Positions 1,877 to 29,243 of a stretch of DNA of 64,000 nucleotides are shown here, piece by piece. The translations under genes and the position numbers were made by a program. Every line of letters starts with the position of its first letter. The stretch's first letter is position 1. The notes beneath the pieces are model-generated. The model was not told the DNA's origin. It saw only the letters and a program-made list of their open reading frames with translations, and ran no database searches. The stretch spans positions 44,981 to 108,980 of the forward strand of contig JAYRWX010000042.1 of NCBI GenBank assembly GCA_041917795.1. Reading direction: 5' to 3'. This DNA is from Verrucomicrobiales bacterium (lineage in GTDB: Bacteria; Verrucomicrobiota; Verrucomicrobiia; Verrucomicrobiales; DEV007).

Positions 1877-2416
1877 TCATTTTTTCAGGTTCCCGCGGAC
1901 ATCCCAGTAGGCCCCAAGTGCATTTCCGGAGGTGCTCCGGACATCGAGTCTGTCGGAATAGGACATGAAGAATCGAGCGCGACGACCTTCGCCCCGTTTG
2001 GTGATCGATAGAATCCTCGAGCCGGAACCCGCGACGAGCACGTTGTTGAGCACCACGTCGATATCAGTGCCTGAGTAGGTCGAGATGATGCGGACACGCC
2101 GATCGTTACCTTTTGTACTCCCGGTACTTAGGAAAAAGGCGCTCCCGGTGCTGGGACCCACGACCGTATCGAGCAAGGGCACCGGAATCTTTTCGGTGTG
2201 GCGGGAACTGAATATGACAGGAATGAACGTCAAGCTTTCGGTGTCCAACACCGCTCCGCGATAGTTCACCGCCCCGAGGTAGGTGCCCGTGAAGCCCGCT
2301 TTGCGCAGATCGCGCATTGAATACGGTTTTGCCTCGACGAACCCAGCGATCAGGCAGAAGCAGATGAGCACCAGAAAACAGAATGGCTTCGAATTCTGGA
2401 AGGAAAGCCGGGTCAT
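1877..2416 (-). CDS. secreted hypothetical protein, paralog 3 of the tandem family
   Basis: 179-aa ORF with a hydrophobic N-terminus (FCFLVLICFCLIAGFVEA). It carries the motifs LRKAGFTGTYLG, GNDRRVRII and ITKRGEGRRARF. Confidence 0.7.
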   Translation of the reverse strand: MTRLSFQNSKPFCFLVLICFCLIAGFVEAKPYSMRDLRKAGFTGTYLGAVNYRGAVLDTESLTFIPVIFSSRHTEKIPVPLLDTVVGPSTGSAFFLSTGSTKGNDRRVRIISTYSGTDIDVVLNNVLVAGSGSRILSITKRGEGRRARFFMSYSDRLDVRSTSGNALGAYWDVRGNLKK

Positions 2417-2489
2417 GCGATTGCCGCAGACTAGCTGTGGTTAGGGCTCCCCGTCAAAGCAATTGCGGATGAATTCGGAGCGGTTGCGC

Positions 2490-4385
2490 TCAATCCCGTG
2501 AAAATTGCAATTGGTAGAGTTGCGAGTATTCGGGACAACGTTCCAGAAGGGTGGCATGCGGTGCCCGGTCGATTACTTTGCCGCGGGCCATCATGATGAT
2601 CTCATCGGAATCGAGGACGGTGGAGAGGCGGTGGGCGATGGCGATGACGGTCTTGCCCCTCGATAGCTCGGCCAGGGCCGACTGGATCGCCTTTTCGGAT
2701 TCGGAGTCGAGGGCCGAGGTGGCTTCGTCGAGGAAAAGGATGGGGGCGTCGCGCAAGAGGGCGCGGGCGATGGAGAGCCGCTGCTGCTGGCCGCCGGAGA
2801 GGGTGCAGCCCTTGTCCCCGAGGATGGTCTCGTAGCCCTGGGGCTGGGCGAGGATGAAGTCGTGGGCGTGGGCCAACCGGGCGGCGTGCTCGATTTCGGC
2901 ATCCGATGCTTCAAGATGGCCGAAGCGCAGGTTGTTGCGGATGGTGTCGTGGAAAAGGAAGGTCTCCTGACTGACCAGGCCGATGTTGTCGCGCAAGGAA
3001 CTCTGGGTGTAGTCGCGGACATCGCGTCCATCGACGAGGATACGGCCCTGCTCGATTTCGTAGAATCGCAAGATAAGGGACAGCAGGGTGGACTTGCCCG
3101 ATCCGCTCTGCCCGACGAGGGCATACTTCTTGCCTGGTTCGAACTTCAGCGAGATGCCCTCGACCGCGGCGGTTTCGCCGGTGTAGGAGAAGGTGACCTC
3201 TTTCAGCTCGATTTCGCCGCGACAATCGGAGAGGACGACGGCGTCGTCGCGGTCTCGCACGTCCGGCACGGCGTCGATGTATCCGAAGACCTTGAGCGCG
3301 GCGACATAGCATTTCTGCATCTGCACCTGCATGCGGCTGAGCATCTTCGCGTGCGGATAAATGCTGATGAGGCCCAGGTTGAGGGTGACGAAGGTCTCCG
3401 GTTTGATCTGGAAATACCAGGCGTAGACCATCCCGATGGCGATACCGAGGGCGCCGACGATCTCGACCATGGGACTGGCCATTTCCATGGCCTTGCGCCA
3501 GCGCATCACGAACTTGTTGATGCGGTAGCTGCCCTCATTGAAGCGATCACGCTGGAACTCCTCGCGTCCGTGGGCTTTAACGAGACGGATGCCGGAGAAA
3601 CTTTCGTGCAGGGTCACCATCAACCCCTCGGATTCCTTCTCCTCGCGGCCACCGGCCTTGCGGACCTTCCGGCTGATCATGGCGACGGGCACGATGCAAA
3701 GGGGGAATACAAAAAGCGCCCCGAAGGTGTAAAGCGGATCCATCATCACCACCATCGTGATGATCGAAAGGATGGCGACGGGGTGCTGGATCAGGGCACT
3801 GAGGAGCTGGCTGCCGGCATCGGCGGTGGTCTTGGTCTGGTTGGCGACGGTCTGGATCAGCTCGCCTTGCTTCACCGTGTTGTAGAAGGAAAGCGATTGC
3901 CGCATCAGGCTCGAGAAACTCTCATCGCGGAGGCGGTAGAGCACCTTCATGTTGATCCAGATCATGCAATACTGGTGCAGGAAGTAGAACACGCCGCGCA
4001 CCAGCATGAGGACGGGGATGCTCAGGCAGACGACGAGGACGAAGATCCATTCCTTATCCGCAGGCAGTTCCGGAGTGGGGATGGAAACATTGGCGAGGGC
4101 GGGTAGGTGGAGGTCCTTGAAGGGGTAATAGACCTCCTGAATCTCGTGCCCCTGCGAGGCTGGCAGCACAATGGTGAAGACCGATTTGAGGACGAGCAGC
4201 AGGAAGCCGTTGAAGGCACCGGCCAGGATGCCGAAGACGATCCCCCAGATGAGACGGGCTTTGAGGGGTTTGACGTAGCCGAGGAGCCGCCGGAAAACCG
4301 CGCGGCGGTCTTCCGCGAGATCGTCGGACGAGGCCGTGGCGAGATCGAGGGCACGGGTGGCCGCGGTGGGAGGGGGCTGGGACAT
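2490..4385 (-). CDS. msbA: ABC exporter, fused permease/ATPase (MsbA/lipid A export-like)
   Basis: The N-terminal half is a 6-TM type exporter domain. The C-terminal half has Walker A GQSGSGKST, signature LSGGQQQR and Walker B ILFLDEATSALD. The start is set at the ATG at 4383-4385 (MSQPPP...). The longer ORF to 4586 would overlap the divergent NusG-like gene. Confidence 0.85.
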   Translation of the reverse strand: MSQPPPTAATRALDLATASSDDLAEDRRAVFRRLLGYVKPLKARLIWGIVFGILAGAFNGFLLLVLKSVFTIVLPASQGHEIQEVYYPFKDLHLPALANVSIPTPELPADKEWIFVLVVCLSIPVLMLVRGVFYFLHQYCMIWINMKVLYRLRDESFSSLMRQSLSFYNTVKQGELIQTVANQTKTTADAGSQLLSALIQHPVAILSIITMVVMMDPLYTFGALFVFPLCIVPVAMISRKVRKAGGREEKESEGLMVTLHESFSGIRLVKAHGREEFQRDRFNEGSYRINKFVMRWRKAMEMASPMVEIVGALGIAIGMVYAWYFQIKPETFVTLNLGLISIYPHAKMLSRMQVQMQKCYVAALKVFGYIDAVPDVRDRDDAVVLSDCRGEIELKEVTFSYTGETAAVEGISLKFEPGKKYALVGQSGSGKSTLLSLILRFYEIEQGRILVDGRDVRDYTQSSLRDNIGLVSQETFLFHDTIRNNLRFGHLEASDAEIEHAARLAHAHDFILAQPQGYETILGDKGCTLSGGQQQRLSIARALLRDAPILFLDEATSALDSESEKAIQSALAELSRGKTVIAIAHRLSTVLDSDEIIMMARGKVIDRAPHATLLERCPEYSQLYQLQFSRD

Positions 4386-5067: not shown

Positions 5068-6042
5068 ATGCTGGCGAGTGACTTTGATTACGAACTGCCC
5101 GAGGAGCTGATCGCCCAGCATCCGCCGGAGCATCGCGGCGAGTCGCGGATGATGGTGATCGACCGCGCCTCGGGCACGATCCGACACGCTTCGTTTCGCG
5201 ATTTTCCAACCTTCCTGCAGCCAGAGGATCTTCTCGTGTTGAACAACACGCGGGTGGTTGCGGCCCGCTTTTTCACCGATGACGGACGCGGTGAGATCCT
5301 GCGGGTCGAGGCGCTTGATGAACACCGCTGGAAGTGCCTCGTGCGACCGGGAAAGCGCTTCCGTCCCGGGGCCGGCATCGTAATCGGGGGCTGCACCGGC
5401 CAAGTGGAATCGATCTGCGAGGAGGGCGGCGAGCGGATCATCGCGTTCGACCGTCCGCCCGATGAGGAGCAGTGCGGCCACCTCGCCCTACCGCCCTACA
5501 TCCGTCGTCCCGATGAGGTGAGGGATCGCGAGCGCTATCAGACCGTCTTCGCCAAGTCCGCCGGTGCCATCGCCGCACCGACCGCGGGATTGCACTTCTC
5601 CGAGGAGATGCTGGCCGCCCTGCCCCATGCCTTCGTCACCCTGCATGTCGGGATCGGAACCTTCCGTCCGGTCTCGGTGGAAAACATCGCCGATCACCAC
5701 ATGCACTCGGAGCGTTACGAGCTGACCCAGGCGACTGTGGAGGCGATCCGGGCAAGTCGGCGCACGATTGCCGTGGGCACGACCGTGGTCCGGGTGCTCG
5801 AGTCCTGCGCCCGTGATGGGGAATTGAAGGCTGGATCCGGTGAAACCGACATTTTCATCCATCCTCCGTATCAATTCCGGGTCGTCGAGGGCCTGCTCAC
5901 GAATTTTCACCTGCCCAAATCCACCCTGCTCATGCTGGTCAGTGCTTTGGCAGGTCGCGAATTGATCCTCGAGGCCTACCACGCGGCCGTCCGGGATCGT
6001 TATCGATTCTTCAGCTACGGGGACTGCATGTTGATCACGTGA
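5068..6042 (+). CDS. queA: S-adenosylmethionine:tRNA ribosyltransferase-isomerase
   Basis: The N-terminus SDFDYELPEELIAQHPPEHRGESRMMV and the C-terminus FFSYGDCMLI are both typical of QueA. The 324-aa length also fits. Confidence 0.92.
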   Translation: MLASDFDYELPEELIAQHPPEHRGESRMMVIDRASGTIRHASFRDFPTFLQPEDLLVLNNTRVVAARFFTDDGRGEILRVEALDEHRWKCLVRPGKRFRPGAGIVIGGCTGQVESICEEGGERIIAFDRPPDEEQCGHLALPPYIRRPDEVRDRERYQTVFAKSAGAIAAPTAGLHFSEEMLAALPHAFVTLHVGIGTFRPVSVENIADHHMHSERYELTQATVEAIRASRRTIAVGTTVVRVLESCARDGELKAGSGETDIFIHPPYQFRVVEGLLTNFHLPKSTLLMLVSALAGRELILEAYHAAVRDRYRFFSYGDCMLIT

Positions 6043-6147
6043 ACAAGGCTCGTCCGGGATTCCACTTGTTTCCGCTCCGAACTGCGGGAAACTAGGCGAC
6101 ACGAAACACCTGATCCGCACCCCCGTCGGATCCCCGGGAGAATTCCC

Positions 6148-7815
6148 ATGTTCCATTTCCTCTCGCAGAAGCGACTCCAAAGCCGTGGGTTCTCCAGTGG
6201 CCAGAAGCGCCGCAAGATCACGTCGACCGCCTGGACCGAACTGCTCCGGGCCGGGTGGCAGACGACCACGCTGCTGTTCATCTTTTTCGCGCTGCTGGTG
6301 ACGCTTTGGATCATCTTTTCCGCCAGCGATGATTCGATTTTCGTTGGGAATCCGCTGCAGGTCCTCGTGGTGGCGTCGGTCGTGTCGGCGACGCTGGTGG
6401 TGCATTGGCACGTGTCGCTGCCCCACACCTTCCGCCAGAATTCGCGCATCGCGCTGATGTTGCTCGTGATCGTCAGCCAGCTCATGCTGGTGAAGCTCAG
6501 CGAATACATCGCCTCGACCTTCGCGCCCGAGGGCGGCTTCCGCTTCCTCGTCGAACCCTATATTTTCGCGCCCGTCATGATCTCGCTGTTGGTGGGGCGC
6601 CGGCACGGCACCTTCGCGGTGATCTACTCGAGCCTTTTCGGTGCGATGGCGGTGCCCCGGGTGGAAGCTTTCCACTTCGTGATTTTCTCGATGATCTGCG
6701 GCTTCGTCGCAATTTACCTGACGAACAAGGTGCGCCGTCGCAGCCGCCTCGTCATGGCGGGCATCTACTCGGGCATCGCCTGTGTGTTGCTGGCGACGAC
6801 GCTGGGCCAGATCAGTTGGCCCTCGATCCCGTCGCCGGCCACGGAGTGGGAACTGGTCGCGAAACAGGTGCTCTCGGCCGTGCTCGTCTCGGGCCTGACC
6901 GCCGTGCTCGTGAGCGGGTTGCTGCCGGTGGTCGAGAGTGCCTTCCGCATCACCACCGACGTGTCCTGGCTCGAGCTGGCCGATCTGAATCATCCGCTCC
7001 TGAAGCAGATGACGATCGAGGCGCCCGGCACCTACCACCACAGCCTCGTCGTTGCGACCCTGGCCGAGACCGCCGCCGAGGCGATCGGGGCGAGCGCGGT
7101 GATGTGCCGCGTCTGTTCCTATTTTCACGACATCGGGAAGATGAAGAAGCCCGCTTACTTCATCGAGAACATCGGCGACGGGAACAACCCGCATGATGAC
7201 CTCACCCCGAACATGAGCGCGCTCGTCGTGATGGCCCATGTCAAGGATGGCGTCGACCTGGCGCTCAAGCACAAGCTCAACTCCGAGATCGTGAACGTGA
7301 TCATGGAGCACCACGGCACCACCCTGATCCGATATTTTTACCATCGCGCCCTGAAGCAGCGCGAGGAGGTCCAGAAACAGGTCGATGGGGGCAATGCACA
7401 CGAAGAGGACATCCCCGAGGTGAAGGAAGAGAGCTTCCGCTACGCCGGACCGAAGCCGCGCACTCGCGAAAGCGCGATCATCAGCCTCGCCGATTCGGTC
7501 GAGAGCGCTTCGCGCAGCCTCCAGAAGCCGACTCCGAAGAAGATCGATGAACTCATTGATGAGATCTTCAAGGAGCGTCTCAACGACGGTCAACTCGACG
7601 ATGCCGCGCTGACTTTGGCGGATCTCGCCACCATCAAGGCGAGTTTCAACTCGACCCTGCGGAGCATGATGCACACCCGCATCGTCTATCCGAAGCTGGA
7701 TGACTCCTCCACGGGAGGCTCCGAGAAGTCGAAAAGCAAGACGCGCAAGCTGGTGCCTCCGCCGACCGGGACTGGCGGCAAGGGAAGCACCGAAAACGCC
7801 ACGACCACTCCATGA
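6148..7815 (+). CDS. 7TM-receptor membrane protein with cytoplasmic HD/HDIG phosphohydrolase domain (PgpH/YqfF-like)
   Basis: It has multiple TM segments followed by HHSLVVATLAE...YFHDIGK...MAHVKDG...MEHHGT (HD domain). It sits immediately upstream of ybeY with an ATGA overlap, which is the classic arrangement. Confidence 0.85.
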   Translation: MFHFLSQKRLQSRGFSSGQKRRKITSTAWTELLRAGWQTTTLLFIFFALLVTLWIIFSASDDSIFVGNPLQVLVVASVVSATLVVHWHVSLPHTFRQNSRIALMLLVIVSQLMLVKLSEYIASTFAPEGGFRFLVEPYIFAPVMISLLVGRRHGTFAVIYSSLFGAMAVPRVEAFHFVIFSMICGFVAIYLTNKVRRRSRLVMAGIYSGIACVLLATTLGQISWPSIPSPATEWELVAKQVLSAVLVSGLTAVLVSGLLPVVESAFRITTDVSWLELADLNHPLLKQMTIEAPGTYHHSLVVATLAETAAEAIGASAVMCRVCSYFHDIGKMKKPAYFIENIGDGNNPHDDLTPNMSALVVMAHVKDGVDLALKHKLNSEIVNVIMEHHGTTLIRYFYHRALKQREEVQKQVDGGNAHEEDIPEVKEESFRYAGPKPRTRESAIISLADSVESASRSLQKPTPKKIDELIDEIFKERLNDGQLDDAALTLADLATIKASFNSTLRSMMHTRIVYPKLDDSSTGGSEKSKSKTRKLVPPPTGTGGKGSTENATTTP

Positions 7816-8273
7816 GCGGTCCCTCCCTGCCGCGGATCGGGCTTTATCCGCATGATGATGGAGGGAATCTCGATTTCGAACGGCTCCAGACCTTGGTGAA
7901 TCTGGCTCTGCCTTGGTGCCTGGCCTCGCCAGGGGCCGGTGAGCAGGGCTTGGCCGAACTGGAAGAGGTGGAAATCAACTTCGTCTCCGACGCGACGATT
8001 GCGGTGGTCCACGCCGATTTCATGGACGATCCCACGCCAACGGACGTGATCACTTTCCATCACGGCGAGATTTTCGTGAGCTGCGAGACCGCCCGCCGCG
8101 AAGGTCCGGGACATGGTCACGACGAGGAGGGTGAAGTGCTGCTCTACATGATTCACGGATTGCTCCACCTCAATGGACACACCGATGCCGGAGATGCCGA
8201 GCGCGAGCTGATGCACGGGATTCAGGAGACCATCCTCGCCCGCGTCCTTTCTCAGGGAGAGCCCGGGGTCTGA
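7812..8273 (+). CDS. ybeY: rRNA maturation endoribonuclease YbeY
   Basis: It has the zinc motif HGLLHLNGH, is 153 aa long, and shows synteny with the HD-domain protein. Confidence 0.9.
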   Translation: MSGPSLPRIGLYPHDDGGNLDFERLQTLVNLALPWCLASPGAGEQGLAELEEVEINFVSDATIAVVHADFMDDPTPTDVITFHHGEIFVSCETARREGPGHGHDEEGEVLLYMIHGLLHLNGHTDAGDAERELMHGIQETILARVLSQGEPGV

Positions 8274-9727
8274 AGGGCCCGTAAAGCCGCCCCGAGGTGC
8301 TCCGCCACCAGGGTCGAGGTCAAGGACTCGGAAGCGATCCCGCGCTCGCGGACCGCGATCTCCGCGGAGCGTCCCAGCAGCCAACTGCCGAGGCACGCGG
8401 CATCGTGCAGATCCAATCCTTGGGCGATCCAGGCCGCGCAGAGGCCGGACAGCACATCCCCCATGCCACCCGAGGCCATCCCGGGATGGCCCGTGCTGTT
8501 GAACTCGAGGGGACGTCCCGGCGAAGCGATGATCGTGCGCGCGCCTTTCAGGAGCAGGGTCAATCCGTGATCGTCGGAAAAGCGACGTGCCTGGGTGGCC
8601 CGGTCGAGGGCGCGCGATCCCTCCCACAGCCGAGCCATTTCCCCGGGATGTGGGGTCAACAGTCGGTTCGGGGGCAGTTCGGCGAGGCCGCCAGGCTCCG
8701 CGGCGAGGGCGTTGAGCGCGTCGGCATCGATCACAAGCGGCTGCGGTTGATGGATCAGGAAATCGAGCAAGCCTGGCAGAGGTTTCGGGCCCAAGCCCGG
8801 GCCGACGGCAAAAACATCGCCGTTCAGCGCCGCGACTTCGTCAAAATGATCAACACTCCGCACCATCACCTCGGGCGGGGCTTTTGTGGCGGTGAGGTCG
8901 TGGATTTCCGCGGGCACACAGAGCGTCACCAGGCCGGCTCCACCGTGAGAGGCGCCCAGCGCCGTGAGAATCGCAGCTCCGGTGTAGCCCCTTGATCCTG
9001 CCACGATCACGACGCGGCCCGCCTTCCCCTTGTGGGTGTCGAAATCCCGTCGCGGCAGGCGTGGGCGTAGGTTCGAGGGAAAAAGGACGCCCCGCGTGGC
9101 ATCGACTTCCGCGACCGGAATGTCGAGCGGGATCTCGACAAGCCGCCCCACCGCATTGGCCGCGGCATCCGAGACAAACCCCCGCTTTGGCAGAGTGATG
9201 CTGAGGGTGAAATCGGCCACGATCGCATCGGGACCGGCGAGGCCACTGTCGGCGTCGAAGCCCGAAGGCAGGTCGATCGCGAAGGTCGTGCCGTGCTCCC
9301 GCAAGCGCAGCGCATTCGCCTCCCGCGCGAGATCGCGGACCCGGCCCCTTAGTTCTCCTTTGGCCCCGATCCCGACGAGCCCATCGACGATCACGAGCGG
9401 CCGAGGGACAGGTCCCTGAGAAATCGGGACAGCCTCCGCCTCGAGCTCCCGCCATTTTTGGGCCGGCAATCCTCCGAGCTCCTCCATCGAAACGGCCGAG
9501 TGGAGGGACAAGTCCCAGCCGCCCCGGCGCAGCCACCGCGCGACCACGAGGGCGTCGCCTCCGTTGTTGCCTTTGCCCACGAAGATCGCGGCGCGGCCAG
9601 GTTGCGGAAAAAAATCAAGAATGGCTGCGGCGCAGAGCCGGCCCGCCTCGTCCATCCAGGGCTCGGCAGAGCGTCCGGCGAAAAAGGCCCGCTCCGCACT
9701 CGCGATGGCGTCGCAGCTCGCGAGCAT
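8252..9727 (-). CDS. nnr: bifunctional NAD(P)H-hydrate repair enzyme (epimerase/ADP-dependent dehydratase, YjeF)
   Basis: The N-terminal YjeF_N region reads FVGKGNNGGDALVVARWL. The C-terminal carbohydrate-kinase-like region reads GKAGRVVIVAGSRGYTGAA...GMASGGMGDVLSG. Confidence 0.9.
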   Translation of the reverse strand: MLASCDAIASAERAFFAGRSAEPWMDEAGRLCAAAILDFFPQPGRAAIFVGKGNNGGDALVVARWLRRGGWDLSLHSAVSMEELGGLPAQKWRELEAEAVPISQGPVPRPLVIVDGLVGIGAKGELRGRVRDLAREANALRLREHGTTFAIDLPSGFDADSGLAGPDAIVADFTLSITLPKRGFVSDAAANAVGRLVEIPLDIPVAEVDATRGVLFPSNLRPRLPRRDFDTHKGKAGRVVIVAGSRGYTGAAILTALGASHGGAGLVTLCVPAEIHDLTATKAPPEVMVRSVDHFDEVAALNGDVFAVGPGLGPKPLPGLLDFLIHQPQPLVIDADALNALAAEPGGLAELPPNRLLTPHPGEMARLWEGSRALDRATQARRFSDDHGLTLLLKGARTIIASPGRPLEFNSTGHPGMASGGMGDVLSGLCAAWIAQGLDLHDAACLGSWLLGRSAEIAVRERGIASESLTSTLVAEHLGAALRALQTPGSP

Positions 9728-19457: not shown

Positions 19458-21665
19458 TCAGACCGGTCGCAGCCGGAAGTAGACCGTGGCCAGCGGCGGC
19501 ACATCGACCTGGATCGAGTGCGGGCGACCGTGGGCATCCTGCTCGCGGGCGGGGATGCCGCCGGCCGAGCCGACGTTGGAACCGCCGTAGAGCGAGGAAT
19601 CGGTGTTGAGGATCTCCTCGTAAAAACCGCCGTTCGGGACACCGAGGCGGAAGCCGGGACGCGGCACGGGAGTGGCGTTGACGATGACGACGATGGTCTC
19701 TCCCCCGCGGCTGCGCCGGATGAAGGAAAAGAGGCTGTGCTTCGCGTCGTTGTGATCGATCCACTCGAATCCACCGGGCTCGTGGTCGAGTTCGTAGAGG
19801 GAGGCTTCGCTGGTGTAGAGCCGGTTCAGGTCGCGGACGAGGCGCTGGATCCCCTGGTGCTCGGGGAACTCCAGCAGGTGCCAGGGCAGGGAATGGCCAT
19901 GGGCCCACTCCTCGGACTGCCCGAAATCGAGACCTTGGAACAGCAGCTTCTTGCCGGGATGCGCGAACATCCACGCGAAGAACATCCGCACGTTCGCCAT
20001 CTGCTGCCAGCGGTCGCCGGGCATCTTCTGCACGATCGAGCCTTTGCCATGGACGACCTCGTCGTGGCTCAGCACGAGGATGTAGCTCTCGTGATAGGCA
20101 TAGATCATCGAGAAGGTCGCCTTGCCGTGGTGGTACTTCCGGTGGACCGGCTCCTGGCTCATGTAGGAGAGCGAGTCGTTCATCCAGCCCATGTTCCACT
20201 TGAAGCCGAAACCGAGACCACCCGTGTCGACCGGCTTGGAGACGCCGGGGAAGGCGGTCGATTCCTCGGCGATCACCATGATGCCCGGATTCTCCTCGTA
20301 GCAGATCTGGTTGAGCTGTTTCAGAAAGGCGATGGCCTCCAGGTTCTCGCGGCCGCCATATTGGTTCGGGATCCACTGCCCGTGCTGCCGCGAATAGTCG
20401 AGGTAGAGCATCGAGGCCACCGCATCGACGCGGAGCCCGTCGATGTGGTATTCCTGCAGCCAGAACATCGCGTTGCTGATCAGGAAATTCCGCACCTCGT
20501 TGCGGCCGTAGTTGAAAATCAGGGTGCCCCAGTCGGCGTGCTCGCCCTGGCGGGGGTCGGCGTGTTCATAAAGGGCGGTGCCGTCGAAGCGGGCGAGACC
20601 GTGCGCATCCTTGGGAAAGTGGGCCGGCACCCAGTCGAGGATGATGCCGATGCCGCGCTGGTGGCAGCGATCGACAAAGGTGCGGAATTCGTCGGGCGTG
20701 CCGAATCGGCTCGTCGGCGCGAAATAACCACAGCCCTGGTAGCCCCAGGATCCGTCGAAGGGATACTCCGCCACCGGCATCAGCTCGATGTGCGTGTAGC
20801 CCATGTCGGCGACGTATTCCACCAGGTCCTCGGCGAGCTCAAGGTAGCTGAAAAAGCGCCCGTCCTCCTCGTAATGGCGTTTCCACGAGCCGAGATGCAC
20901 CTCGTAGATCGACATGGGGCGGTGATAGAGGTCGCAGGCGGCGCGCTTTTGCATCCACTCTCCGTCGTTCCACTGATAGCGGCCGATGTCGTAGATGATG
21001 CTGGCGGTGGCAGTGCCGTGCTGGGAGAAAAAGGCGAAGGGATCGCTCTTCACGAAGAGGTTCCCGTCCGCACCCACGATCTCGAATTTGTAGTGGTCGC
21101 CGGTGTGGAGATGCGGCAGGAAGATCTCCCAGATCCCGTTGTGGTTGCGCATCGGGTGGACCCGCCCATCCCAGCCGTTGAAGTCACCGACCACGCTGAC
21201 CCGGCGCGCGTTCGGCGCCCAGACCGCGAAGGTCACGCCGTCGATCCCGCCGCATTGTTTGGGATGCGCCCCCATCGCCTTCCAGAGCCGGCGGTGGGTG
21301 CCCTCGCCGACAAAATAGACGTCCTGCTCGCCCAACACCGGGCCGAAGGAATAGGGATCGACCAGCGGCTCGGTCACCGTCTCGCCGAATTGGAAAATCA
21401 AGCGGTAGCCGAAGGGACCGTCCCGGTCGGGCAGCACGAGCTCGTAGAAACCATCGCGGTGGAGCTCGGACATCTCCAGCGTCTCACCGCCCTCGACCTG
21501 CACCTTCACGCCCGCGCTGTAGGGGCGGAAGACCCGCAGCACCATGCCCGGCCCGCCGGGATTCCGGTGCAGTCCGAGGAAGGAAAAAGGATCGCGATGA
21601 GAGGCCGAAACGATCTGGGTGACCTCCTGGGGGTTGGAGGTGCAAGTGCTTGGGGATGATGCCAT
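19458..21665 (-). CDS. glgB: 1,4-alpha-glucan branching enzyme
   Basis: It is 735 aa long and has [50 protein letters not shown] and [10 protein letters not shown], which are the GH13 conserved regions of GlgB. Confidence 0.95.
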
Positions 21666-21736
21666 CGCGGAGGAGTCTAGAGCAAAAAGTGAGATTTCGA
21701 AAGCGGGGTTCCGCGAATCGGGTAGCTTGGCTTAGC

Positions 21737-22978
21737 ATGTTCAGTGCCATGTCCCGGATTCCCCCCCGCTTTCATCCCGTCCCCTTCGCTTACCATCAGG
21801 AAGTTGAACTCGAAATCGAGTCGCTAACCAACCTCGGAAAGGGCGTCGGTCGACACGGCGACTGGGTCGTTTTCGTTTCGCATGCCCTGCCCGGCGAGCG
21901 CGTCGTCGCCCGCATTTTCCGCAACAGCCCCACCTACTCCGAGGCCGACCTCGCCGCCGTGATCCGGCCCTCCGAAAACCGGGTCGAGCCCCACTGCCCG
22001 CTCTTCGGCGAATGCGGCGGCTGCCAGTACCAGAACCTCGCCTACCCCGCCCAACTCGAGTGGAAACAGCGCCAGGTCGCCGAGCTGCTCCAGCGCATGG
22101 CCGGGATCGAGCATCCCGTCGCGCCGGTCATCCCCTCGCCCGTGCTCTACGGCTACCGGTCGAAGATCACCCCCCATTTCCAGAAGCCCGAAGGGGGAAA
22201 GATCGGCCCCATCGGCTTTCTCCGCGAAGGCCGCCGCCAGGAGATCCTCGACGTGCCGCGCTGCCCCATCGCCTCGGACTCCATCAACACCGAACTCGAA
22301 AAAGTCCGCCGCGAGGTCCGGGCCAACGCCCGCGCCTACAAGAAAGGCGCCACCCTGCTGCTGCGCGACTCGCGCGACGGCCGCGTCCGCACCGACCCCA
22401 CCGAGATGTGCGAGGAGCAGGTCGGCGACCTCGTCTTTTCCTTCCACGCCGGCGAGTTCTTCCAGAACAATCCCCACATCCTGCCCGCCTTCGCCGGCCA
22501 TGTCACCACCGAGGCCCGCGCCGGCGGTGCCCGCTACCTCGTCGACGCCTATTGCGGGTCCGGACTTTTTTGTCTCAGCGCCGCCTCCGACTTCACCGAG
22601 ACCCTCGGCATCGAGATCAGCGCCTCCTCCGTCGACTGGGCGAATCGCAACGCCAGGGACAACGGCATTGCAAATTGTCGATTCCTCCAGGGCGATGCCG
22701 CCGACCTCTTCGCCGGAGTCACCTTCCCCGCCTCCGAGACCGCGGTCGTCATCGATCCGCCGCGAAAGGGGAGCAGTCCCGATTTCCTGCGGCAGCTCGT
22801 CGCCTTCCGACCGCAGCGCATCGTCTATGTCAGCTGCGATCCCGCCACCCAGATCCGGGATTTGGAACACCTCCGCGACGACTACGAGATCCTGACCATC
22901 CAACCCTTCGACCTCTTTCCGCAAACCCGGCATTTGGAGGTGGTGGTGACCTTGGGGGCGAAGGCCGCGGTGGCGTGA
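21737..22978 (+). CDS. 23S rRNA/tRNA (uracil-C5)-methyltransferase, RlmD/TrmA family (TRAM + 4Fe-4S + SAM MTase)
   Basis: It has a TRAM-like N-terminus, the Cys cluster CPLFGECGGCQYQ, DAYCGSGLF (SAM motif I), and DPPRKG...YVSCDPAT. The start is set at the ATG at 21737. Confidence 0.85.
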   Translation: MFSAMSRIPPRFHPVPFAYHQEVELEIESLTNLGKGVGRHGDWVVFVSHALPGERVVARIFRNSPTYSEADLAAVIRPSENRVEPHCPLFGECGGCQYQNLAYPAQLEWKQRQVAELLQRMAGIEHPVAPVIPSPVLYGYRSKITPHFQKPEGGKIGPIGFLREGRRQEILDVPRCPIASDSINTELEKVRREVRANARAYKKGATLLLRDSRDGRVRTDPTEMCEEQVGDLVFSFHAGEFFQNNPHILPAFAGHVTTEARAGGARYLVDAYCGSGLFCLSAASDFTETLGIEISASSVDWANRNARDNGIANCRFLQGDAADLFAGVTFPASETAVVIDPPRKGSSPDFLRQLVAFRPQRIVYVSCDPATQIRDLEHLRDDYEILTIQPFDLFPQTRHLEVVVTLGAKAAVA

Positions 22979-23468
22979 GACACCAGTGGCCCCGGAGGGG
23001 CCCGAGAAGGTAGTGTTGGAGCGTAGCGGAACCACCGGACCACCGGACCACCACCCGGAAACGAATACCCGCCCCGGAGGGGCGGAAGAATCGGCCCGCA
23101 TCACCAGAGGCCCCGGAGGGGCCCGAGAAGGTAGCCGGTGGTGAAGCGCAGCGGAACCACCGGACCACCGGACCACCACCCGGAAACGAATACCCCGCCC
23201 CGGAGGGGCGGAAGAATCGGCCCGCATCACCAGAGGCCCCGGAGGGGCCAAAGAAGGTAGCCGGTGGTGAAGCGTCGCGGAACCACCGGACCACCGCCCG
23301 GAAACGAATACCCGCCCCGGAGGGGCGGAAGAATCGGCCCACATCACCAGAGGCCCCGGAGGGGCCCGAGAAGGTAGCCGGTGGTGAAGCGCAGCGGAAC
23401 CACCGGACCACCGGACCACCACCCGGAAACGAACACCCCGCCCCGGAGGGGCGGAAGAATCGGCCCGC
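22979..23468. repeat. tandem array of four ~117-126-bp composite REP-like units (periods 121, 126, 117 and 126 bp, measured between CACCAG landmarks)
   Basis: Each unit contains three hairpins. They are GGCCCC-gga-GGGGCC, CCGGTGGT-(13 nt)-ACCACCGG and CGCCCC-gga-GGGGCG. Each unit also has a CACCGGAC micro-repeat that is present twice in units 1, 2 and 4 and once in unit 3. A fifth unit begins at 23469 (ATCACCAGAG) and merges into the 3-prime end of the transposase gene. Confidence 0.9.
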
Positions 23469-23469
23469 A

Positions 23470-23916
23470 TCACCAGAGCCACTTCTCCTCGAACTCCACC
23501 ATCCCGCGCTTCAGAAACTCCAAATACTCCTCCTGAAAAGTTTTTGTCCGATGATGCGCCTCCTGAGTCAGGATGTAGGCCCTCGCGCTTTCAATTCCGG
23601 ACGCTCCGAGGGTGAAGGCGCCGTAGCCCTCCTGCCACGCGAATCCCTGCCAGCCGAGCTCTCTCCGGACCCAGGCCGATGATTCGCTCTTCAACTCCCG
23701 CAAGACTTTCGCGAGACGATGGGTCGGCTTCAATCCTGCGAGCACATGGACGTGGTCGCCGGTTCCGCCGACGGCGTGGGCAAGTCCGTCCAGTCCGCGA
23801 ATCGTGCCTCCGAGATATTCATGAACCCGCGAACGGGTTTCGGGTCCCAGCCAGGGCTCGCGATGTTTCGTGGAGAATACCAGATGGTAGTGCAGCGAGG
23901 TGTGCGTTGACGGCAT
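23470..23916 (-). CDS. IS200/IS605-family Y1 (HUH) transposase, REP-associated (RayT-like)
   Basis: MPSTHTSLHYHLVFSTKHREPWL... carries the HUH motif DHVHVL and the catalytic-Tyr motif AYILTQ. It is 148 aa from the ATG at 23914-23916. There is no tnpB partner, and REP-like units flank it in inverted orientation. Confidence 0.85.
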   Translation of the reverse strand: MPSTHTSLHYHLVFSTKHREPWLGPETRSRVHEYLGGTIRGLDGLAHAVGGTGDHVHVLAGLKPTHRLAKVLRELKSESSAWVRRELGWQGFAWQEGYGAFTLGASGIESARAYILTQEAHHRTKTFQEEYLEFLKRGMVEFEEKWLW

Positions 23917-23930
23917 TCGGGACGCTTCTC

Positions 23931-24025
23931 GCGCCCCTTCCGGGGCGCAACCGCTTCTTTGTGGCGTGGACCGGTGGTTCCGCTGCGCTCCACCACCGGC
24001 TACCTTCTTTCGTCCCTCCGGGACG
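23931..24025. repeat. single inverted REP-like unit upstream of the RayT-like gene
   Basis: The reverse complement of 23955-24025 aligns by eye with the array unit (CGTCCCGGAGGGACG...GAAGGTAGCCGGTGGTGGAGCGCAGCGGAACCACCGGTCC). Confidence 0.8.
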
Positions 24026-24257
24026 GTTCGCTGCGATGCCAGCATCCGCATGGAGTCTGGACATTTCCAACTCCTGCGGATCGAGCAGGGTTACCGTGTT
24101 GAATGACGATTTTGTCCCGCACCCATCGACGACGGTCTGCCAGGAAAATCCTTGTCAGGACGCGGGTTTTTTACGATTCTCCGGGGAAGTTCCTTCGGTG
24201 ATGTTGTTTGGCGGAGGGATTTGGAGCAAGAACTTTTGGAGCAAACAAATACGGAAA

Positions 24258-25160
24258 ATGCCCGAGAACGGAATTCGAAGCACATACTCTCAAAGCCCGT
24301 TCCAAATTCACATGTGTGATGATGAAGGTGTGATATCGACAGGTTCGGCCTTCTTATACGATTTTGAAGGCGACACGTTCATCATTACGAATTGGCACAA
24401 TTTTAGTGGACGGCACTTCTTGACCCGAGAGCCACTTTGTAAATCTCGCAGAACTTTTCCGCTCTTCATCAACGCAAAACTCGCCTCATTCATATTTAAA
24501 GGCGAGACTTTGGCAAACGGATCGTTCACCACTGCTGCAACACGTGTGGAAATATTCTGCGACCGCGAACCACTTTGGTATGAGCATCCGATTTTAGGAT
24601 CTAAGTGCGACCTGGTAGCGCTCCCCTTTCAGCGCCCAGATACGTGCCCGGAATTCATGAATACTCCGGTCAACAAAATTAGCAGAGATAGAATACCAAT
24701 TGAGCCGGGGGGTGTGGTGTTCATAATTGGATTTCCAAAGTCGATAAGTGTTGGGATAGGACTTCCAATTTGGAAGTCTGGTTATATCGCTTCTGAGCCG
24801 CATTTTGGAGTCACAATTGATGGTGAAATTTGCTCATACGGAGGGCTCGCCGGCGGAACGAATTTACCGGCATTTTTCATCGATTCGCTAACACGCGAGG
24901 GAATGTCGGGATCCCCCGTATTTGCTAAATATACCGGGGCTTGGGACCAGAGTGATCCGTACGCGGGGCTTGATTTCGATTCACCAGAGTTTTGGAAACG
25001 AAATGACGTTGTTCTTGGCGGCTCGGGAATGGAATTTATTGGGTGTTACAGCGGTCGAATAGGAGCTCGCGAAGAGGGAGCTGCCCTCGGTTTGTGTTGG
25101 CCTGTAAGCGTAATAAATGAGATATGTTCATCGAAATCACGGGCAAGCAACCCTCACTAA
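24258..25160 (+). CDS. trypsin-like (S1/chymotrypsin-fold) serine protease, no signal peptide
   Basis: The catalytic residues appear in canonical H-D-S order: ITNWHNF (His), KCDLVAL (Asp) and TREGMSGSPVF (GxSGxP Ser). The region is AT-richer, for example 26/60 G+C in line 24301-24360. The start is uncertain, with in-frame ATGs at 24201, 24258 and 24312. The ORF-track start at 23679 is antisense to the transposase. Confidence 0.75.
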   Translation: MPENGIRSTYSQSPFQIHMCDDEGVISTGSAFLYDFEGDTFIITNWHNFSGRHFLTREPLCKSRRTFPLFINAKLASFIFKGETLANGSFTTAATRVEIFCDREPLWYEHPILGSKCDLVALPFQRPDTCPEFMNTPVNKISRDRIPIEPGGVVFIIGFPKSISVGIGLPIWKSGYIASEPHFGVTIDGEICSYGGLAGGTNLPAFFIDSLTREGMSGSPVFAKYTGAWDQSDPYAGLDFDSPEFWKRNDVVLGGSGMEFIGCYSGRIGAREEGAALGLCWPVSVINEICSSKSRASNPH

Positions 25161-25424
25161 CAACTCTAACAGGTTGCGTCATGAAGGGGCTTGCACCCCT
25201 GATTCGCCGCGACATCCACCGTCCTCCCTACCCAACAGGGTCAGATCGAACATTCAACCCTGTTGAATCCCGTCCTTGGCCCGGTGTTGCGCCAAATTTC
25301 CACCGGAGTCGGGCGCCATCACCCCGCCCCTCCCGCCCTCCCATCCCGACATCTAGCTAGTCCGCCTCTAAAGAATCCCAAGAAAAGCTTCCTATCGTCG
25401 GGGGATTTTGCTAGACGCGTTTCC

Positions 25425-26000
25425 ATGCCGACGCCGTTGAAATGGAACTCGGGAGTGAAGTGGAATTCGTCCGCACCGGGTGCTGTATGGAATGGCACGG
25501 TCAACCCAATACAAAAAACCATGACCCAAGACCTGATCACCCTCGACATCTCCGCGGCCGACTGGACCGCCATCGACGCCGCCCTGACCGTGCTGGAGGA
25601 AAAACTCGCCCCCAAGCTGCTCGACCTGACCATCGACCAGCGCAAGGAGCTCACCAAGATGGGGAACAAGAGCGAGGCTTTCGCCCGCCAGACCCTGATC
25701 ACCGCCCGGACCAATGTCGGCAAGCTGCCCGCCGATGCCGCCGCCGATCTGACCACCGAGGAGGCCGACCTGGCCGCGCTCGAGGCGCTGCGTCCCCGGC
25801 TTGCCCGCCTGACGGCGCTCGCCGAAAAATCCGACGACACCGAGCTGGCGCTCGGCAGCGACATCATGGTGTTTGCCCTGACCGTCTACCGCATCCTCAA
25901 GGCGGTGGGGGCCGGCGGCGCCCTCGACGAACTGAAAGCCCAGATGGGTGCCCGTTTCCAACGCCGCGCCCAGCGCGACCCCGCCCCACCCTCCGCCTGA
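25425..26000 (+). CDS. hypothetical protein (helical, Ala/Leu/Asp-rich)
   Basis: This is the high-GC part of ORF 25263..26000, and the long overlapping minus-strand ORF looks like a Gly/Arg-rich antisense shadow. Candidate starts are at 25425 (MPTPLKWNSG...) and 25521 (MTQDLITLDIS...). No family was recognised. Confidence 0.5.
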   Translation: MPTPLKWNSGVKWNSSAPGAVWNGTVNPIQKTMTQDLITLDISAADWTAIDAALTVLEEKLAPKLLDLTIDQRKELTKMGNKSEAFARQTLITARTNVGKLPADAAADLTTEEADLAALEALRPRLARLTALAEKSDDTELALGSDIMVFALTVYRILKAVGAGGALDELKAQMGARFQRRAQRDPAPPSA

Positions 26001-26061
26001 TTCCGCGAAGGGGCGTCCGGAGCTCCGGTTCGTGCAAAATGCATTAAACGCAAGCCTCCGG

Positions 26062-26122
26062 CCCTTGCGCGCAAAGCCAAAAGCCACGCCAACGGAGCTC
26101 GGAGCCTTGCGCGCAAAGCCAA
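26062..26122. repeat. 19-bp perfect direct repeat CCTTGCGCGCAAAGCCAAA (26062-26080 and 26104-26122), each copy containing the 10-bp palindrome TTGCGCGCAA
   Basis: Read directly from the sequence. The copies are 42 bp apart start to start, in the gap between the two small ORFs. Confidence 0.85.
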
Positions 26123-26216
26123 AGATTCTCTGACTTCCGAGTTGCCTCCGATTCTCTCCGGCGATCTCCGCTGCGCCCCGATTCCGACTCCTGACTCCTA
26201 CCCCCCATCTCCGACC

Positions 26217-26489
26217 ATGTCCTTCGACCCCAATCTGCCCCAGGAAGGCACCGACCTCGATGCCGCCGAAATGCGGAGCCAACTGAACGGCCTCCGCGAA
26301 CTGATCGACGCCGTCCCCGGCGAGGTGACCAACGCCCAACTCGCCGCGGCGATCTTCGGGACGAGCAACAACAGCAATAGCGTCGCCACCCTCGACACCG
26401 CCCCGAACAATCCGCCGACGGTGGATGATTTCGAGATGATGCGCGGCAAGCTGAACGAACTGATCCTCGCGCTGCGGAGGAATCCTTAG
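26217..26489 (+). CDS. small hypothetical protein (90 aa)
   Basis: MSFDPNLPQEGTDLDAAEMRSQLNGLRELIDAVPGEV... The start is set at the ATG at 26217, which is codon 26 of ORF 26142..26489. No family was recognised. Confidence 0.45.
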   Translation: MSFDPNLPQEGTDLDAAEMRSQLNGLRELIDAVPGEVTNAQLAAAIFGTSNNSNSVATLDTAPNNPPTVDDFEMMRGKLNELILALRRNP

Positions 26490-26687
26490 CGCGCGCGGTC
26501 TGGGGCGGTTGGTGCTTGGTGCTTCGTCCTTCCACCGGCGGTCGGGGCTCGGTGGAGCGATGAGATCACCGGCTGGGTCGGCTCCAACGAGACTTTCGGC
26601 TTGATGGTGGTAGCGGGAGCGGGCAGGATTCGATTCGCCCACACTTTGGTGTGACTAAACAACGTTAGGCTGAATACTTAAATCATT

Positions 26688-27086
26688 ATGAGTCTTAATC
26701 CTCTCACCCTTCTCGAAAAGGCTATCAACGAACACGGTAGTTCCGTCATCCTTAAGGAACGCCTCGGTCTTGCTGCCGATCAGTTCAAGCAACTCGAGAA
26801 GGAAAATGGGGAACTTAAGAAGGAGAATGATGACCTTCGTGCAAAACTGGCCGAACTTACAGCCAAGCTTGAAGCCCAAACGATTCCCGAAAATTACATT
26901 AAGAAGAGGGGAGTCCTTTTCCTGCGGAACCCTGACGGGAAGATTGATCCTGACGCTTACTGTCCTACCTGCAAGTCTTCCATGTTCAGCCTCATGGGGG
27001 CGACACCGTTGAAATGTAAAAAATGCGGCGAGGTCGCTGGGATCACGGGGGCCGAAATTCCTGACATCATTGCTGCCATCCAATGA
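26688..27086 (+). CDS. coiled-coil plus C-terminal zinc-ribbon protein (132 aa)
   Basis: The heptad-rich segment is QFKQLEKENGELKKENDDLRAKLAELTAKLEA. It is followed by CPTC-(15 aa)-CKKC. The region is AT-richer, at 30/60 G+C in line 26761-26820. Confidence 0.65.
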   Translation: MSLNPLTLLEKAINEHGSSVILKERLGLAADQFKQLEKENGELKKENDDLRAKLAELTAKLEAQTIPENYIKKRGVLFLRNPDGKIDPDAYCPTCKSSMFSLMGATPLKCKKCGEVAGITGAEIPDIIAAIQ

Positions 27087-27168
27087 CCCCGCCGAACAAG
27101 ACGGCGGACTCAAGGGCTTACAGCCCTGAGTCGCTCGACGTTAACTGAAAACACTTTCCTGAAGCTGT

Positions 27169-27984
27169 ATGATTGAAGAGATTACGATTGATTCGTGGGA
27201 AGCCCTCAATTCCGCATTGTTTGCTGACACTGAGAATAAGCGCACTCATAGGTTCAGATCGAACTTCGCGTATCGAGGCGTGTCAAATAAAGACTACACT
27301 CTAAAGCCTGGAATTGCTCGACTTGTGCCTCCCTACCCAGGGATGGAAGAGAATCTTTTGAAGCAGTTCAAGAAGTATGCTGCACGGGACGTTGTTGAGC
27401 GAGACACTGATTGGCACTGGTTGACAGTTGCCCAGCATCACGGTCTGCCAACTCGACTTTTGGACTGGTCATACTCTCCGTTGATCGCAACGCATTTTGC
27501 CACGGCGAATCTTGTATCCAGAACCACGCCCGATGCTGCAATTTGGAAGGTGAATTTTGCCCAAGTTCATGAACTTCTGCAGGCCAAAGAAACAAAGGTT
27601 TTGAAGGAGTTTGGCTCAAAGATCTTCTCAATTGATGCCTTATGCGTCGGGATTCCTAGCCTCGATGCTCTAAACGGCCATTCCTCCTCATCGAGCGAAG
27701 TCGCTGTGTTCTTTGAACCCCCCTCGATTGATGACCGAATAATCAACCAATTCGCGTATTTTTCGGCGTTGAGTGACCCCTTTTTGGCTTTTGATGATTG
27801 GCTAGCTCTACCGAGTGTTAGCGCCAAGGTTGATGCGAAGAAGATCATTATTCCATCGGCACTCAAATGGGAGTTCCGAGACAAGCTTGATCAGTGCAAT
27901 ATTAATGAAAGAGTATTGATGCCGGGTCTAGATGGGCTTTGCGCATGGCTGAAGCGCCATTATACGCCGTTAGCAAAACCATAA
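27169..27984 (+). CDS. FRG-domain protein (271 aa)
   Basis: FAYRGVSNKDYTLKPGIAR carries the (F/Y)RG motif, and WLTVAQHHGLPTRLLDWSYSPLIATHFA is the second conserved FRG-domain block. The region is AT-richer, at 30/60 G+C in line 27301-27360. Confidence 0.75.
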   Translation: MIEEITIDSWEALNSALFADTENKRTHRFRSNFAYRGVSNKDYTLKPGIARLVPPYPGMEENLLKQFKKYAARDVVERDTDWHWLTVAQHHGLPTRLLDWSYSPLIATHFATANLVSRTTPDAAIWKVNFAQVHELLQAKETKVLKEFGSKIFSIDALCVGIPSLDALNGHSSSSSEVAVFFEPPSIDDRIINQFAYFSALSDPFLAFDDWLALPSVSAKVDAKKIIIPSALKWEFRDKLDQCNINERVLMPGLDGLCAWLKRHYTPLAKP

Positions 27985-28216
27985 CGCAGGTTCCAGACCG
28001 AAGTGCAAGGTCACCTGATTTTCGAAGAGTCCTGCCTGAGTCCTGAATCCTTGTCGCCTCCGGTGTCGGTGCTCAGGCATCCGGCCGCTCACAACGCCTG
28101 AACCGATCGACCGGGATCCCCGCCAGTCCCATCCCCGCCGCCACCCGCGCCAGCCAAGTTACCGCTTGCGTCGCCGCCGGTTCCGCAGCACTCTTGCCAC
28201 GTTCTTCCGGACATCC

Positions 28217-28287
28217 GCGGGTGTCGTTCAATGGTAGGACGCGAGCTTCCCAAGCTTGAGACCGGGGTTCGATTCCCCGTACCCGCA
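28217..28287 (+). tRNA. tRNA-Gly (anticodon CCC), CCA not encoded
   Basis: The acceptor stem is GCGGGTG/TACCCGC. The D-arm region reads TCGTTCAATGGTAGGACG and the anticodon loop is CTTCCCAAG. The T-arm is GGGGTTCGATTCCCC and the discriminator is A at 28287. Confidence 0.9.
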
Positions 28288-29243
28288 TGCCTTCGATCCC
28301 GCATTCGTATTCCTTCGATCCGACTTACGGGTACACGCTCGATCAGCTGCTCGCGGTCGACGCGCCGGAGCCTCCTCCGGGGTTCGAGGACTTCTGGAGA
28401 GCCCGCTACGATGCTGCGCTGGCGGTCGACCCGGCTCCGGCCCTGCGTGAGATCCCCGGGGGCACGCCGCGCTGGCGGGTGGCGGAACTGGGCTACCGCA
28501 CCACCGACGGCCAGCCGATCCGGGGTTGGGCCCTGCTGCCGCGCGAGGGCGAGGTGAAGCGGGGTTTCATCTGGGGCCACGGCTACGGGGGGATGGACGG
28601 GCCCTGGTTCGACCTGCCCTTCGCCGATGCGGTGATTTTTTTCCCCTGCATGCGGGGCATCTCGCAAAGCCGGCGTCCGGGGGTGGCGGCGGATCCGCTC
28701 GGGCACGTGCTCCATGGGATCGAGGACCGCGACCGCTACATCCACGGGGCCTGCGTCGAGGATCTCTGGCTGGCGGTGACGTCCCTGATCCAACTCTTTC
28801 CGCAGACGGCGGGGCGCATCGGTCTGCTCGGGATCAGCTTCGGCGGTGGCATCGGCATGCTGGCGCTGCCCTGGGATGATCGGATCGCGCGGGGCCACTT
28901 CGAGGTGCCGAGCTTCGGCCACCATCCCCTGCGTCTCACCCTGCCGACCCACGGCAGCGGTGCGGCGGTGGCGGTCTACGAAAAGCGCAAGGGAGGCGCG
29001 ATGGAGACGCTGCGCTATCACGATGCGGCGACGGCGGCACGCTTCACCCGGCAAGCGGTGCACATCGCTGCGGCGCTTTTCGATCCCTTCGTGGCTCCGC
29101 CGGGGCAATTCGCGATCTACAACGCGCTGCCCGGAGAGCGGAAGCTGTATCTGCTCGAGGCGGGACACCATGACTATCCGGCGGCGGCCCGGCAACGGGC
29201 GGAGGTCCTCGCGGAAGTTGACGATTTTTTTTCTGGCATGTGA
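28287..29243 (+). CDS. acetyl xylan esterase / cephalosporin-C deacetylase family (AXE1) alpha/beta hydrolase
   Basis: The N-terminus reads YSFDPTYGYTLDQLLAVDAPEPPPGFEDFWRARY, which is AXE1-like. The nucleophile elbow is GISFGGG. The ATG at 28287 shares its A with the tRNA-Gly discriminator. Confidence 0.75.
   Translation: MPSIPHSYSFDPTYGYTLDQLLAVDAPEPPPGFEDFWRARYDAALAVDPAPALREIPGGTPRWRVAELGYRTTDGQPIRGWALLPREGEVKRGFIWGHGYGGMDGPWFDLPFADAVIFFPCMRGISQSRRPGVAADPLGHVLHGIEDRDRYIHGACVEDLWLAVTSLIQLFPQTAGRIGLLGISFGGGIGMLALPWDDRIARGHFEVPSFGHHPLRLTLPTHGSGAAVAVYEKRKGGAMETLRYHDAATAARFTRQAVHIAAALFDPFVAPPGQFAIYNALPGERKLYLLEAGHHDYPAAARQRAEVLAEVDDFFSGM

Follow-up and report, generated by a model that had tools for sequence, protein, structure and literature searches.

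The window analysed here, a 64,000-nucleotide stretch of contig JAYRWX010000042.1 from a Verrucomicrobiales bacterium (GCA_041917795.1), carries two neighbouring genes on the plus strand. According to the ORF list ORF A (26688-27086) encodes a protein of 132 amino acids with a coiled coil and a four-cysteine zinc ribbon, while Pfam, PADLOC and phrog_4962 matches describe ORF B (27169-27984) as a 271-aa "bare" FRG-domain protein and a candidate of the PDC-S15 family. The two reading frames are separated by an 82-bp spacer (27087-27168) whose sequence holds a dispersed hairpin repeat. An earlier note on this DNA had described the co-oriented frames, their 82-bp distance and the coiled-coil, zinc-ribbon and FRG domains, and in all of this it agrees with the sequence, with our AlphaFold2 model and alignment, and with Pfam.

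Both genes are located in a mosaic insertion of 5.2 kb (22979-28216), delimited by synteny between an RNA methyltransferase gene on its left (442 aa, 21650-22978) and a tRNA-Gly(CCC) on its right (28217-28287, plus strand, ARAGORN). In four genomes of the same genus (L122, L124, L127 and L128) the homologue of the methyltransferase gene lies 70-83 bp from the tRNA-Gly. This empty site identifies 22979-28216 as a strain-specific insertion, and thereby bears out the proposal that the genes sit on a horizontally acquired patch. Neither ORF was found in 30 related genomes searched with window positions 25200-28400, where the conserved part is the tRNA-Gly only. The insertion comprises a repeat array, an IS200/RAYT-type Y1 transposase gene (23470-24051, minus strand, Pfam Y1_Tnp), a gene for a Trypsin_2-like peptidase (24240-25160, Pfam Trypsin_2), two GC-rich ORFs, and ORF A and ORF B. 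With a GC content of 0.496 (ORF A) and 0.474 (ORF B) the two genes lie below the window (0.63) and the flanking core genes (0.65-0.68), and their common low GC had been taken as a sign of joint acquisition. This conclusion does not follow, since a GC content of 0.476 is also seen for the Trypsin_2 gene of the insertion and since both families are below the GC content of their hosts in several of the other sampled loci.

About 50 bp of the spacer (27093-27142) fold into two hairpins (-27 kcal/mol, z=-2.6) without a T-tract. The element recurs in the genome at least 11 more times at 83-96% identity, is also copied in five related genomes, and bears no relation to the repeat array next to the RAYT gene. 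No terminator-like site was found in the 82-bp spacer, and one weak promoter-like match is present at 27145-27173. A role of the hairpins as a terminator was rejected, as there is neither a T-tract nor a terminator-like prediction and the element is a dispersed repeat instead. The spacer element is a native repeat between two foreign genes and is neutral on the question of co-transcription; its presence indicates that the junction has been remodelled within this lineage.

Several further features of the insertion were observed. The Trypsin_2-like peptidase gives a weak match to PADLOC PDC-S45 (6.9e-8) and a match to phrog_7688 (5.8e-19), and may be another defence-type cargo gene. Directly upstream of ORF A lies a GC-rich ORF of 115 aa (26142-26489) that belongs to a multi-copy family, with at least 8 other copies in the same genome (76-91% nucleotide identity over about 180-400 bp) on contigs C5, C8, C19, C28 and C36; it has no match in Pfam, NCBIfam, PADLOC or PHROG. 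Exactly where the GC content falls before ORF A, at 26626-26639, the sequence GGATTCGATTCGCC agrees at 12 of 14 positions with the T-arm of the tRNA-Gly (28265-28278) 1.6 kb downstream. Classical integration at the 3' end of a tRNA would place such a repeat on the other side, and a match this short could be fortuitous; the sequence may be the degenerate relic of an att-like site or a coincidence. An integron-like cassette was also considered because of a core-like heptamer, GTTAGGC, upstream of ORF A; inspection by eye revealed neither an inverse core nor an attC-like structure, and no integrase was found.

ORF B, a minimal FRG protein

The FRG assignment of ORF B is upheld by the profile search, with a match to Pfam FRG (PF08867) at E=2.7e-26 and 92.7 bits (cut-off 25) over residues 32-114. 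Both blocks of the domain are present, Y35-R36-G37 and Q89-HHGLPTRLLDWS, and in an alignment of 17 sequences (ORF B and 16 homologues) the residues R36, G37, Q89, H90, P94, R96, D99 and W100 are invariant. The match to PADLOC PDC-S15 (PDLC04938) is stronger still and extends further, covering residues 24-266 and profile positions 59-271 of 276 (E=2.4e-51), and phrog_4962 is matched at E=8e-31. The C-terminal stretch of about 130 residues, which the earlier note could not assign, makes up the second, conserved half of the family domain: ORF B is conserved from end to end across the 16 homologues, and its C-terminal half harbours the invariant blocks FFEPPSxDxRIxNQ and IIPxxLKWExRDKLDQxNIxERV, the latter listed for ORF B in the form LKWEFRDKLDQ alongside FFEPP and RIxNQ. 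Because these blocks are invariant we count this half as part of the FRG domain, of which the 94-position Pfam model spans only a part. ORF B carries neither a fused sensor nor any other domain and thus represents the minimal FRG form. Judged by its sequence, it is a complete stand-alone member of a "bare FRG" family of about 260-285 aa and a new member of PDC-S15, catalogued by PADLOC as a single-gene defence candidate.

The view that the FRG domain has no established function holds for experimental proof, as the literature searched contains no experimental validation of any PDC-S15 member; it does not hold for prediction, since the family is catalogued as PDC-S15 and predicted to be an effector of the ADP-ribosyltransferase superfamily. 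The Aravind group places Frg in this superfamily and describes it as a potential antiviral effector, perhaps with NADase activity (PMC9503650); the same article cites Burroughs and Aravind 2020 for the superfamily assignment. A cold-seep study has validated PDC candidates other than PDC-S15, and in a Pseudomonas aeruginosa phage model PDC-S15 is among the top predictors of infectivity (bioRxiv 10.64898/2026.02.22.706922).

Sequence searches of the PDB retrieved no solved structure for either ORF. The AlphaFold2 model of ORF B (pLDDT 74.8, pTM 0.76) has no Foldseek match at E<0.1 in the PDB or BFVD; chains of cholera and pertussis toxin and PolyVal ADP-ribosyltransferases appear at E-values of 2.7-8 only, with TM-scores of about 0.2. 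The ADP-ribosyltransferase fold of ORF B is therefore a prediction from the literature that the fold searches neither support nor refute. Based on that literature and on the conserved residues, ORF B would form one ADP-ribosyltransferase-like domain and would use NAD+, for hydrolysis or for the ADP-ribosylation of a target. For catalysis the candidates are R36 in the YRG block, [ST]101-x-S103 following the HHGLPTRLLDW strand, and E183 in the FFEPP block, which could be mapped onto an R-S-E-type triad. In this way ORF B may act as an anti-phage effector.

Homologues of ORF B at 40-61% identity were collected from 18 loci (16 of them full-length) in a set with one genome per prokaryote species. 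None of the 18 has a relative of ORF A within 5 kb (tblastn). FRG homologues are also present on 65 plasmids, where 55 span at least 80% of ORF B and most are annotated as "FRG domain-containing protein"; in the three plasmids inspected the gene stands alone, with no neighbour of the ORF A type. Its surroundings there are metabolic genes on a Spirosoma plasmid and on plasmid 2 of Deinococcus deserti, and on a Brucella anthropi plasmid it adjoins SIR2 and an AAA ATPase. The genome studied here contains a second FRG gene on contig 8 (L120, 1099-1854, minus strand), again with no ORF A-like neighbour. It encodes 251 aa, belongs to a different subfamily and lies in divergent orientation to an ORF of 159 aa (2037-2516, plus strand) with no Pfam match. 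In Verrucomicrobium sp. BvORR106 (L003) an ORF of 1055 aa (5909-9076) lies directly downstream of the FRG homologue; by eye its N-terminus (PFRLFISSTTADL...) resembles TIR/DUF4062, and this neighbourhood could be a defence context.

ORF A and its modular family

The AlphaFold2 model of ORF A, built on 19 homologues (mean pLDDT 81), consists of a helix at residues 5-15, one long coiled-coil helix at 19-65, a beta-rich domain at 70-120 and a C-terminal helix. The coiled coil predicted earlier is thus present, with a length of about 47 residues instead of the proposed 60 or so. The beta-rich domain (pLDDT >90) holds the pairs C92-P-T-C95 and C110-K-K-C113, and these four zinc-ribbon cysteines are invariant or nearly so in the 19 homologues. 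Invariant positions of this alignment are E15, H16, G17, S18, I21, L22, C92, C95 and C110. The EHGS motif lies at the N-terminus (about residues 8-26), and the first 26 residues as a whole are almost invariant among otherwise diverse proteins.

For ORF A itself Pfam yields nothing above its curated cut-offs, and NCBIfam and PADLOC yield nothing significant; the sub-threshold matches are coiled-coil noise and one zinc-ribbon match. A Foldseek search with the model returned generic zinc ribbons only, at E>0.1. With a profile of 75 N-termini, on which the estimate of family size is based, we found 864 clusters at 50% identity among 1.84 billion proteins; 458 clusters reach E<=1e-10. The best 150 of the 864 are proteins of 48-233 aa, each with the motif at its N-terminus. 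In the family a coiled coil of varying length follows, and then an interchangeable C-terminal module. Most common is a winged helix (HTH_20 in 17, HTH_24 in 13 and HTH_5/ArsR in 10 of 122 members); other members end in at least three different Cys-rich ribbons, one being that of ORF A. PADLOC profiles give only weak matches to this family, to winged helices (Csa3/CasR/CARF3) and to coiled coils (LmuB/JetC), from which we conclude that it is uncatalogued there. The family is rare and sporadic: a search of 300 further genomes from the phylum did not turn up the motif, and tblastn with ORF A gave no match in collections of isolate phages or plasmids, with five viral contigs carrying the family. 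On one of these, an IMG/VR viral contig (L113, 3450-4396), a 137-aa gene of the ORF A type follows a gene for a 165-aa double-zinc-ribbon protein, and the two form a moron-like insert on the opposite strand between capsid-module genes.

From this architecture ORF A would be expected to dimerise through its coiled coil and to bind nucleic acid via the C-terminal zinc ribbon, where most relatives would employ a winged helix of the ArsR/HTH_20 type. The invariant EHGS motif would serve as a common surface for binding a partner or a signal. Its most likely role is that of a small DNA-binding regulator of the kind typical for variable islands rich in defence genes, and at most ORF A could affect transcription of any downstream gene, with no specificity for FRG. 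Since it belongs to a modular family that Pfam, NCBIfam and PADLOC do not list, ORF A is the gene with more novelty in this locus.

To characterize the neighbourhoods of the family we compared 75 distinct members, i.e. 74 others and ORF A of the window. An FRG gene is found next to none of the 74 other members, the window being the only locus with FRG downstream. At positions ±1 and ±2 of the 75 members 218 ORFs fall into 212 BLAST clusters, a figure based on naive ORF calling on short metagenome contigs. The closest homologue (81% amino acid identity) has nucleotide homology to window positions 26684-27086 only, i.e. the ORF itself; no FRG gene follows and the next gene is convergent. Other close homologues precede unknown genes of 156 aa and 341 aa or DUF2971, one precedes NA37 and a gene of 395 aa next to an MmeI-like restriction enzyme, and downstream genes can be missing altogether. 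The members L019, L022 and L023 stand alone. Different cargo can follow closely similar genes. Two zinc-ribbon genes with 93.5% nucleotide identity at one chromosomal site each have different cargo behind them: between L024 and L028 a conserved block comprises 250 bp upstream, the gene and 25 bp past its stop codon, and is followed by different genes. On the metagenome contig L024 a short hairpin motif, ..AGGG..CTGACCCTATTAA.., recurs in conserved form behind each of four successive genes (5402-5431, 6524-6548, 7418-7447 and 7739-7763). The genes between these motifs differ from those of the sister contig L028, which gives the region the look of a cassette array with a recurring inter-cassette site.

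The genes directly downstream (+1) include DUF2971/PDC-S31 (two or three times), PD-Lambda-5_B (E=7.8e-73), a Dam methylase, PIN_12, NA37 and an ABC/AAA_21 ATPase resembling PtuA/AriA; most are unknowns. When the +1 genes were compared with distal genes of the same loci, with families counted, ORFs at least three genes away matched a type III restriction enzyme (3.7e-193), HerA, PD-Lambda-1, a DRT reverse transcriptase, GajB and PtuA. Because the defence matches are at least as strong several genes away, the association is with defence-island DNA and not with the +1 gene. We also asked if FRG and DUF2971 might belong to one superfamily, which would make the cargo non-random; this was ruled out by hhalign (probability 0.1%).

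Pairing of the two genes

The earlier note had proposed ORF A and ORF B as a candidate two-gene module, and had named a lack of conserved linkage across genomes among the findings that would refute it. Seen from either side the two families are not linked (0/18 FRG loci and 0/74 ORF A-family loci), and the claim of a module is not borne out. The pairing of ORF A with ORF B is a one-off juxtaposition and not a dedicated two-gene system. We consider it probable, at roughly 65%, that the two are independent accessory genes, an FRG effector candidate and a regulator-like protein, brought side by side in a mosaic insertion. What speaks against independent genes is the co-oriented gene that many family members have close downstream, and that a bare FRG protein without a sensor of its own would suit a partner acting in trans.

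This last point is shared by the alternative that fares best, in which proteins of the ORF A family are generic sensors or regulators combined with interchangeable effectors, and ORF A controls the FRG effector, for instance through repression or activation until infection, the pair being functional here though unconserved. A co-oriented downstream gene is found for 48 members compared with 15 on the opposite strand (76% of 63 loci with a gene within 400 bp), at a median gap of 90 bp. With about three quarters of the members arranged in this way, an operon-type link to variable cargo is conceivable, and it would be consistent with the downstream defence candidates (PDC-S31, PD-Lambda-5_B, PIN_12 and the AAA_21/PtuA-like ATPase) and with the exchange of cargo directly behind the conserved block of L024 and L028. 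However, co-orientation of 76% and gaps of 90 bp are not obviously above what adjacent bacterial genes display in general, and the upstream neighbours of ORF A-family genes behave alike in orientation and spacing. The defence matches several genes away, which are at least as strong, point to an island association instead, some members stand alone, the nearest FRG homologues have no such partner, and the spacer in the window is filled by a dispersed genomic repeat. We therefore regard a combinatorial module of this kind as unlikely. The same low standing applies to the broader proposal that the EHGS family is an undescribed class of plug-in regulators or sensors of defence islands, placed before interchangeable cargo and here controlling a sensor-less FRG effector, an idea that we put forward as speculative.

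Less probable again is that neither gene takes part in defence, the bare FRG protein having another cellular role and ORF A being an ordinary regulator on a mobile element. The metabolic surroundings of several FRG homologues (Spirosoma plasmid, D. deserti plasmid 2) would agree with this, as would the lack of a validated PDC-S15 member in the literature searched. On the other hand, PADLOC lists the family as a defence candidate, one plasmid copy adjoins SIR2 and an AAA ATPase, PDC-S15 is a top predictor of phage infectivity in the P. aeruginosa model (bioRxiv 10.64898/2026.02.22.706922), and the sporadic distribution and low GC content weigh against such a role. A toxin-antitoxin pair, with ORF B as the FRG toxin and the upstream ORF A as its antitoxin, is highly improbable: the order of a small gene before a larger enzyme-like gene on foreign DNA, and an addiction-module domain (Unstab_antitox) in one downstream neighbour elsewhere, are outweighed by FRG homologues that stand alone in 18/18 loci and occur on 65 plasmids, which a constitutive toxin would not tolerate, by a C-terminal domain of ORF A that shows no co-variation with what lies downstream (unrelated cargo is found behind zinc-ribbon proteins that are almost identical), and by an 82-bp gap with hairpins and no overlap or coupling, so that ORF A and ORF B show neither the obligate pairing nor the tight coupling of type II systems.

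With independent accessory genes as the preferred reading, the direct importance of the locus is low, since the proposed two-gene defence system fails. Its components are of interest separately. ORF B is a clean, minimal FRG protein of 271 aa with all conserved blocks and hence a convenient construct for a first biochemical test of an FRG domain; it would allow a first examination of NAD+ use or ADP-ribosylation by FRG and of phage protection by PDC-S15. The ORF A family combines an almost invariant N-terminal motif of 20 residues with putative, swappable DNA-binding ends in defence-rich variable DNA. The family might represent a class of regulators of immune islands and merits a census.

Comparison with known systems

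With other PDC-S15 and Pfam FRG proteins ORF B has in common the strong model matches, the YRG and HHGLPTRLLDW[ST] motifs and the single-gene layout, while it differs in being minimal, its 271 aa consisting of the FRG domain only. As regards ADP-ribosyltransferase effectors such as the RES and cholera-toxin-like clades, the conserved motifs of ORF B could fit an R-S-E-type triad, yet neither sequence nor fold searches gave a significant match to a solved member.

ORF A is similar in build to YabA, in which a helical oligomerisation region at the N-terminus precedes a zinc domain at the C-terminus. This likeness is an analogy only, as the YabA match to ORF A reaches 19.6 bits (cut-off 142) in the coiled-coil region only and the zinc domains are unrelated. 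A further parallel is provided by ArsR/HTH_20 and the defence-linked winged-helix regulators of the Csa3/CasR type, since many relatives of ORF A end in such a winged helix, and these regulators resemble the ORF A family in their small size, likely dimeric state and location in defence-rich islands. In contrast to them, ORF A carries a zinc ribbon where they have a winged helix, and Pfam gives no HTH match for it; conversely, its EHGS motif and coiled coil are absent from the ArsR/HTH_20 and Csa3/CasR-like families. As relatives with the same motif do contain an HTH domain, it is the family scaffold that is common to these proteins and not the winged-helix domain.
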